DNA of 64,000 nt from Eledone cirrhosa (Eukaryota): the NCBI GenBank assembly GCA_964016885.1, contig OZ024752.1, positions 49,352,001 through 49,416,000 on the forward strand. The letters are read 5' to 3'. A program made the translations under genes and the position numbers. Under the pieces are notes generated by a model. That model worked only from the letters and a program-made list of their open reading frames with translations. It did not search any database and was not told the origin of the DNA. Shown one piece after another: positions 33,004-33,782 of this stretch (positions are counted from its first letter, which is position 1; every line of letters begins with the position of its first letter).

Positions 33004-33053
<50 letters not shown>

Positions 33054-33172
33054 TATAGACATAGAATATTCGAAATATTCTGTATGTTTATAATAAACAT
33101 TTTGAAGACCTAATCGCTATAGAATAGAATACGTCACGTATTACAATTAGATTCTCGATAAAAGCAAGGGAA

Positions 33173-33215
33173 GTAATCTACGCGTTTCATTCTTGTTAGA
33201 ATTCATCAGGACTAC
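33173..33215 (-). ncRNA. Minimal type I hammerhead ribozyme
   Basis: GUAGUC-CUGAUGA-AUUCU aaca AGAAU-GAAAC GC GUA-GAUUAC; all core nucleotides present; palindromic ACGCGU helix III. Confidence 0.85.
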
Positions 33216-33546
33216 ATATCCAGTGCTTTTATCGAGAATGACACAGCTAGAGACTTATAGAATACTTAGCTGTGTACAGGAACTGGTTTGAAAGAGCGGT
33301 TGCCGGTCCGGCAGAAATTAGAAATTGGAATAAATGCTCTGTCTATATTCTATGTCTATATTCTATGTCTATATTCTATGTCTATATTCTATGTCTATAT
33401 TCACATATATATCGCTATTTCAGAGCATTTATTCCAATTTCTAATTTCTGCCGGACCGGCAACCGCTCTTTCAAACCAGTTCCTGTACACAGCTAAGTAT
33501 TCTATAAGTCTCTAGCTGTGTCATTCTCGATAAAAGCACTGGATAT

Positions 33547-33589
33547 GTAGTCCTGATGATTTCTAACGAGAATGAAACGCGTAGATTAC
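33547..33589 (+). ncRNA. Minimal type I hammerhead ribozyme
   Basis: GUAGUC-CUGAUGA-u UUCU aacg AGAA u-GAAAC GC GUA-GAUUAC; predicted cleavage after 33583. Confidence 0.85.
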
Positions 33590-33782
33590 TTCCCTTGCTT
33601 TTATCGAGAATCTAATTGTAATACGTGACGTATTCTATTCTATAGCGATTAGGTCTTCAAAATGTTTATTATAAACATACAGAATATTTTCGAATATTCT
33701 GTGTCTATATTCACATATATATCGCTATTTCAGAGCATTTATTCCAATTTATATATATATATATATATTTATATAAATATAT

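Follow-up and report, generated by a model that had tools for sequence, protein, structure and literature searches.

How did two oppositely oriented copies of a 310-nt, hammerhead-bearing unit come to lie within a (TA)n run at positions 33050-33750, and what kind of element are they? Coordinates refer to the window, i.e. the whole 64-kb stretch of DNA that was analysed. The locus is best explained, with a probability of roughly three in four, by one event in which a hammerhead non-LTR retrozyme of 310 nt, itself non-autonomous, was inserted in trans by the RT/GIY-YIG enzyme of a (TA)n-targeting Penelope-like element (PLE), the Hydra clade being the best candidate. The element is not an autonomous PLE but probably belongs to the non-LTR retrozymes, and the copy at this locus is a lone, inactive insertion.

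Organisation of the element

The element comprises 1.18 direct copies of the unit (33384-33750) and an inverted copy of 292 nt (33050-33341), all within (TA)n. The following features were mapped:

33008..33050, no strand: (TA)n target, left side (sequence)
33050..33341, minus strand: left arm, copy of the unit in inverted orientation, 5'-truncated and tailless, 3' end outward (98.3% identity to the right arm; ends mapped)
33340..33402, plus strand: 13-bp tandem array at the head-to-head junction, four perfect copies and most of a fifth (repeat mapping)
33384..33440, plus strand: upstream partial copy, pseudo-LTR-like terminal redundancy of 57 nt (repeat comparison)
33385..33694, plus strand: full 310-nt unit, 34.5% GC, no coding match (contigs of 340 nt, i.e. 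310+30, that close on themselves, in runs X4 and X13)
33680..33701, plus strand: UUCG-capped hairpin directly upstream of the short 3' end (fold)
33714..33750, plus strand: tail of the right arm only, 37 nt, or 28 nt if the TA-like 33714-33722 is also assigned to the left arm (arm ends compared; PLE tail definition)
33750..33768, no strand: (TA)n target, right side (sequence)

The terminal redundancy with period 310 claimed in the first-pass annotation was borne out: 33384-33440 recurs as 33694-33750 over 57 nt with a single mismatch (A33391/G33701). The near-full inverted copy, annotated from 33049, was mapped to 33050-33341, and its placement within (TA)n and its non-coding nature held as well. 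No reading frame of at least 120 aa was found over 33050-33750, and two frames of 75-80 aa in the element were without Pfam match. An RT or GIY-YIG frame was absent from the element, and 0 of 108 complex frames of the window matched Pfam. The left arm (read on the minus strand from 33341 down to 33050) differs from the right arm at 33560 (right T, left A), 33568 (G/A) and 33701 (G/A) and by a one-T indel at 33687.

The 57-nt redundant part contains a TATA-like box at 33406 and an initiator-like site at 33436, 30 nt apart; this spacing was obtained in 41 of 2000 shuffles for a motif pair that was spotted post hoc. The (TA)n on both flanks prevents the reading of any target-site duplication. When circularised, the 310-nt unit folded at -67.8 kcal/mol with 60% of positions paired (z -4.99 against 100 shuffles). 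A read-through transcript of the whole locus folded into a long hairpin (~300 bp; -522.9) in which the ribozyme core was paired.

Hammerhead ribozymes

Each arm carries one ribozyme:

33151..33239, minus strand: type I hammerhead of the left arm with C3 at 33209 and cleavage predicted after 33179; helix II has 5 bp with an A-U base (core and fold; Rfam HH9 23.0 bits, sub-threshold)
33523..33611, plus strand: type I hammerhead of the right arm, core at 33553, predicted cut after 33583 (core pattern and fold)

The two complete type I cores with 6-bp helix I reported initially, starting at 33553 (plus) and 33209 (minus), were recovered as read from the sequence, and the same cut after 33583 was predicted, with a left-arm counterpart after 33179. 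From an outer helix of 16 bp the right ribozyme proceeds through a helix of 3 bp, a 3x1 internal loop and helix I (6 bp) to the core, helix II and helix III. Helix I includes one G.U in both arms, and its 16-bp extension, past the internal loop and 3 bp, is perfect. Helix II of the right arm has 4 bp and a tetraloop above a U.U mismatch at its base, and helix III is the palindrome ACGCGU (6 nt; 2 bp). The U.U is the family state, as runs X4, X13 and X1 show no alternative letter there; the left-arm A-U is private.

A strict hammerhead descriptor returned four cores in the window, namely the two described here and a second pair at 44271/44350. As controls, the complemented and the reversed window each had 0 cores; among 20 block-shuffled versions there was 1. 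The two ribozyme domains folded with z -5.85 and -6.06 (200 shuffles each), and the bare 47-nt core had no fold signal (z -0.03). The Rfam search proposed by the first-pass annotation yielded Hammerhead_HH9 on both arms (left 23.0 bits, E 0.035; right 15.8 bits, E 0.14), in each case below the gathering score of 52. At gathering thresholds the sole Rfam match was tRNA-like (35188-35245), with no hammerhead among the results. Since the Rfam matches are sub-threshold, it is the helices and the invariant core that support the hammerhead call.

The initial label of a minimal hammerhead was not retained. By the definitions in PMC4209133, the minimal PLE hammerhead has a helix II of 7-8 bp, a helix I of 4-5 bp and an ill-defined loop 1, and here helix II has 4-5 bp and helix I 6+3+16 bp. 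Features of the canonical type I motif were found instead, i.e. a helix I of 6 bp with an internal loop, a helix II of 4 bp and a short palindromic helix III. Judged by its sequence, the ribozyme is of the canonical retrozyme type with extended helix I and not of the minimal pLTR type.

Canonical metazoan hammerheads need a second copy for good folding (PMC4209133). For an in-silico head-to-tail dimer, the double-hammerhead fold was at -149.3, two monomer folds at -142.3 and the free minimum at -155.7 kcal/mol. The double hammerhead was thereby favoured over two monomers by 7 kcal/mol; that the free minimum is 6-13 kcal/mol lower than either active fold, in a calculation that leaves tertiary contacts unscored, was counted against the preferred explanation. 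An intramolecular dimer of the two arms' ribozymes was rejected, as the cores lie on opposite strands. With one ribozyme per strand, the locus cannot self-release a monomer or circle. 'Active' retrozyme copies have been defined by a minimum of two successive units bearing the hammerhead on one strand (Li, Clavereau, Pollet 2026, bioRxiv 10.64898/2026.07.22.740005); this locus has one core on each. Many predicted ribozymes are poor cutters (PMC4209133; bioRxiv 10.64898/2026.07.22.740005), with one of nine dimers active, a point that was likewise counted against the preferred explanation.

Other hammerhead loci

A core-pattern scan provided at least 97 metagenome loci and 2 viral-contig loci for comparison. 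Among the metagenome matches listed, 75 were distinct and 55 had at least 500 nt upstream. Blastn of the right arm against the at least 97 metagenome and 2 viral loci gave no match at E 0.01, and likeness was limited to the core. An inverted mate, always outward-facing, accompanied 41 of the 55 unrelated hammerhead loci among the matches listed; a direct copy accompanied 1 of 55. Pairs of hammerheads on opposite strands, separated by 100-700 bp, are already on record (PMC4209133). The inverted ribozyme pair, part of the initial description, is routine for PLE insertions, and its orientation was rejected as a novelty in view of the comparison loci, a second family in the window and published PLE insertions.

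This second hammerhead family forms head-to-head two-arm insertions at 32744-32968 and 44124-44433, both in (TA)n and with a one-sided tail of ~65 nt, and a single arm at 13645-13780. Its intact cores at 44271 (minus) and 44350 (plus) have a long helix II. The helix III resembles the Hydra-1_oBim row in PMC8557442 File S2, and the copy at 32744-32968 lies ~80 bp from the element studied here.

A remnant of ~90 nt was also seen at ~2510-2590 on the minus strand, between (TA)n runs. Its hammerhead-like core at 2567 has a helix I of 5 bp, a U.U at the base of helix II and a 4-bp helix III like several Hydra elements. It is 89% like the studied core over 28 nt, and it passed a looser scan and failed the strict one. 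Among the metagenome loci (L001-L097) many are short non-coding palindromes with outward minimal hammerheads, apparently eukaryotic PLE remnants. Short direct repeats (317, 152 and 134 bp) cover the core in three loci (L022, L062, L087), which may resemble retrozymes.

The unit in sequencing runs

The unit was present in 20 of 24 listed runs, under 17 organism labels from 16 studies, with 0.56-0.84 of its 31-mers. Four of the 24 runs were aligned to a stretch from 33385 comprising the right arm and its flank. This flank is an abundant short interspersed repeat (SINE) at 33778-33990 (further copies e.g. at 433-630, 9698-9884, 19267-19657, 23129-23739 and 43637-43841). It was used as contamination control. 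The loose-end and joint tables were taken up by the SINE, and an autonomous partner of the unit was not found in them, which counts against the preferred explanation. A related SINE version, with other major alleles, is present in run X13.

Summed depth in run X1 was 2.7e5-8.3e5 on the unit versus 3-11 on SINE contigs with unique flanks, where depth does not equal copy number. The only unit variant that reached 8% in X1, in a count that leaves out some differences, was G33568A (54%), which is the left-arm allele. Runs X4 and X13 each gave one unbranched 340-nt (310+30) contig that returned on itself at 310, with 0 and 1 differences, respectively. These data suggest a high-copy, homogeneous family with a unit that closes on itself at 310 nt. 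Such cycle contigs can stem from arrays, circles or abundant partial tandems, as contigs drop rare paths. RNA runs were absent from the listed holders of the unit, which are uninformative on expression.

The same data bear on the reading that the unit is a terminal region or internal-deletion derivative of a longer coding PLE, and the locus a doubly truncated pLTR remnant with no free retrozyme RNA. The PLE-like insertion footprint (see below), the hammerhead-to-end distance, which is like that of Hydra elements in the published material consulted (PMC8557442), and the fact that most short inverted hammerhead loci among the comparison matches listed are such remnants speak for it. We consider it unlikely, as the terminal redundancy closes at 310 nt and not at kilobases, depth in X1 varies only ~threefold along the unit without a 3' pile-up, and the X4 and X13 cycles offer no path into a body (given that contigs drop rare paths). 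In addition, helix I is extended as in canonical motifs, and a direct copy, as present here, accompanies only 1 of the 55 loci among the matches listed.

Occurrence under many organism labels

A viroid-like circular RNA common to unrelated animals through recent horizontal spread, and integrated secondarily, would account for the breadth of labels and for the near-identity of the unit in X4 and X13. It is nevertheless highly improbable. X4 and X13 also carry pieces of the flanking SINE near the level expected from trace carry-over of material like organism A: in X4 these show the variant pattern of X1 at depth 2-5, and when X1 is scaled by unit depth, the SINE depth that it forecasts for X4 and X13 is right to within ~2-8-fold, with the exception of the SINE core, where X13 carries its own abundant version. 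Raw reads X23 of organism B (1.94 Gb) had 0 reads on 33385-33714 and no SINE, although run X2 of organism B holds the unit; a single-copy locus could escape at this amount. Two further runs of the sample of X18 had none of the unit's words. On these grounds horizontal transfer was rejected as the leading reading. The near-identical matches under 17 labels look like trace carry-over of a high-copy repeat, which is the simpler reading; low-copy sharing may exist with organism K, the bearer of a related SINE.

Insertion footprint and proposed mechanism

PLE insertions are marked by partial tandems, by a 5'-truncated copy that lies inverted at the 5' end, by a tail of 30-40 bp that is often one-ended, and by a bias for (TA)n (PMC8557442). 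Penelope of rotifers has the same layout, and its repeat includes a TATA and Inr-like motif (PMC3846280). All four marks were found here: a partial tandem or pseudo-LTR with 57 nt of redundancy, an adjacent inverted 5'-truncated copy at the 5' end (33050-33341), a one-sided tail on the right arm (37 nt, or 28 by the alternative alignment, with the left arm ending at the position of 33713), and an AT-rich microsatellite target with (TA)n on both sides. The insertion is attributed to a PLE enzyme because all four are present, and because a PLE protein, once purified, nicked AT-rich DNA on both strands and extended each, with two RT start sites bounding the tail (PMC11167929). The unit is regarded as a probable retrozyme since its size, GC content and canonical ribozyme fit retrozymes and the circularised form is well folded. 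The first-pass annotation was in the right neighbourhood with its retrozyme and PLE readings, which are not alternatives but parts of one explanation, a retrozyme-type unit with a PLE footprint. It made no mention of the 13-bp junction array, the 16-bp extension of helix I, the U.U in the right arm or the one-sided tail.

The following course is proposed. Source loci would be head-to-tail repeats that are transcribed into multimers. The ribozyme would cut chiefly as a double hammerhead via the ACGCGU palindrome, and monomers may be ligated into circles. A PLE enzyme would nick both (TA)n strands and prime two cDNAs, one per start site (short end 33713; tail end 33750), on template RNA that would be uncut at the ribozyme site. 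Because the copy runs through the cleavage site, this template would be a ligated circle or an uncleaved multimer. The right cDNA would extend over one unit and ~57 nt and halt at the UUCG hairpin, where the 13-mer would be reiterated; the left cDNA would halt before completing one unit. Both would then be joined head-to-head via a 2-nt overlap.

The locus cannot distinguish a circular from an uncleaved multimeric template. Its greater-than-unit length, initially read as the mark of a circular template or of a tandem pLTR, does not point to a circle in particular, since an uncleaved tandem transcript yields the same and uncleaved RNA is the main substrate of a PLE enzyme in vitro, where ribozyme cleavage is dispensable for insertion (PMC11167929). 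Two template molecules would fit the arm difference at 33568, because this site is 54% A in X1. The G/A could instead be due to CpG decay after insertion, which was counted against the preferred explanation.

Inversion without retrotransposition would result if a lone satellite or retrozyme monomer had been duplicated in place via DNA fold-back or palindrome rearrangement. Mini- and microsatellites abound in the window, and a slippage array sits at the junction, as such an origin would have it. It is very unlikely, given that a one-sided tail of PLE length is not predicted by it, that the same build occurs twice more in the window in the second family, and that the arms bear different family alleles at 33568. 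Recurrence of the build in another family also argues against an assembly or chimeric-read artefact behind the palindrome, as do the four arm differences, one of them a family polymorphism, and arm ends that are asymmetric in the manner of PLEs. No run-derived piece spans the inverted junction, in a comparison that began at 33385; an artefact is scarcely credible all the same.

Array at the junction

The 13-bp array reiterates the segment just 3' of the UUCG hairpin and overlaps the left arm by 2 nt. Located exactly at the stop of the right arm, it copies anew the sequence flanked by a pair of 6-nt repeats, the first of them within the hairpin stem. RT stalling with telomerase-like realignment and later DNA slippage in a satellite-rich genome are given about even odds as its origin. 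Among the matches listed, an upstream tandem unit of at least 7 nt occurred at 4 of the 55 comparison hammerhead loci, with more than three copies at only one. A literature search on slippage at PLE junctions found no description.

A bolder composite is very doubtful as a whole. In it, the unit would be an abundant self-cleaving circular RNA that recently moved between animal species, and its genomic copies would be made by a Hydra-clade PLE enzyme which primes at both target ends and, on stalling at a hairpin, adds short repeats such as the 13-mer array by telomerase-like realignment.

At 33568 and 33701 the right arm has G and the left arm A, both being A-to-G on the ribozyme strand. Position 33701 faces C33680 in the UUCG hairpin, which with A gives an A.C mismatch. 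A.C mismatches are a preferred ADAR context. A retrocopy of edited RNA is possible, with two sites being too few for more and 33568 being a CpG.

Surrounding repeats

Besides the SINE, a tRNA-headed repeat was found at 35085-35265, 7227-7396 and 58683-58852, with an Rfam tRNA match of 31.2 bits at 35188-35245. It is probably a tRNA-derived SINE with at least three copies. The abundant SINE at 33778-33990 and the microsatellites would suit an octopus host. Homogeneous minisatellites with units of ~51, 67 and 71 bp lie at 41095-41660, 41724-42832 and 25074-25716.

Comparison with known systems

Metazoan non-LTR retrozymes have been described in coral, Mytilus and axolotl, and PLEs were proposed as their mobilisers (Cervera and de la Pena 2020, PMC7229834). 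They share with the studied element a non-coding unit of 150-450 bp, GC below 50%, a canonical type I hammerhead and a self-paired predicted circle. Axolotl HHR_Amex2 has the U.U at the base of helix II seen in the right arm, and HHR_Amex1 a weak palindromic helix III that favours dimers (PMC7229834). Unlike these retrozymes, the studied locus has 1.18 units and an inverted copy instead of a tandem array, and is known from sequence; the accounts in PMC7229834 that were available describe no inverted copies or PLE tails. According to a 2020 review, no motif in retrozyme repeats reveals the mobilising partner (PMC7761336).

With EN+ PLE insertions (Arkhipova 2013, PMC3846280; Craig 2021, PMC8557442; Frangieh 2024, PMC11167929) the element shares all footprint marks and the TATA and Inr-like motif. 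It differs from these PLEs in having no RT or GIY-YIG frame, a 310-nt unit, a canonical hammerhead and a 13-bp junction array. Hydra-clade PLEs resemble it in the (TA)n target, in a hammerhead near the 3' end and in a short helix II with U.U at its base. The supplement of PMC8557442 (Files S1, S2) gives a hammerhead for 25 Hydra-clade PLEs; of these, 24 are (TA)n-specific and 14 have the U.U (counted by eye). Hydra and Naiad elements are listed there in Octopus, with the Hydra clade for Octopus bimaculoides; the Naiads are listed without canonical hammerheads. The 3' end of Hydra-1_Obim was compared through its ribozyme row. Helix III of Hydra-clade hammerheads has 3-4 bp versus 2 bp and the palindrome in the studied element, which was counted against the preferred explanation. 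Six short motifs taken from the unit and from the second family were all absent from the consensus files of PMC8557442, in which line breaks can hide matches; this, too, was counted against the preferred explanation. As helix III differs and no shared sequence was found, the Hydra clade is a candidate partner only, by structural likeness.

The repeat annotation of O. vulgaris reports recently active Penelope families, and its main text makes no mention of ribozymes. No description of an octopus or cephalopod retrozyme was found in the literature searched; most subscription papers, Repbase and Dfam lay outside this scope, and an existing consensus may be missed. The element is real, defines no new class and is probably an uncatalogued example of a known element kind. 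If young and homogeneous, its 310-nt family would also serve as a small model template for deciding between circles and uncut multimers as substrate of PLE RT, and for finding out if this RT reiterates short repeats in the way of telomerase, to which it is related.

Li, Clavereau and Pollet (2026) likewise regard retrozymes as non-autonomous PLE derivatives and monomer copies as dead-end offspring. They draw on co-occurrence and on pLTR phylogeny, using 35 genomes without a mollusc among them, and their main text is without insertion footprints. The mobiliser of animal retrozymes has so far been argued from co-occurrence and sequence trees. At one locus, a full PLE footprint on a canonical retrozyme unit, including the tail bounded by RT start sites, adds direct structural evidence; it points to the enzyme that moves such elements and is testable genome-wide.
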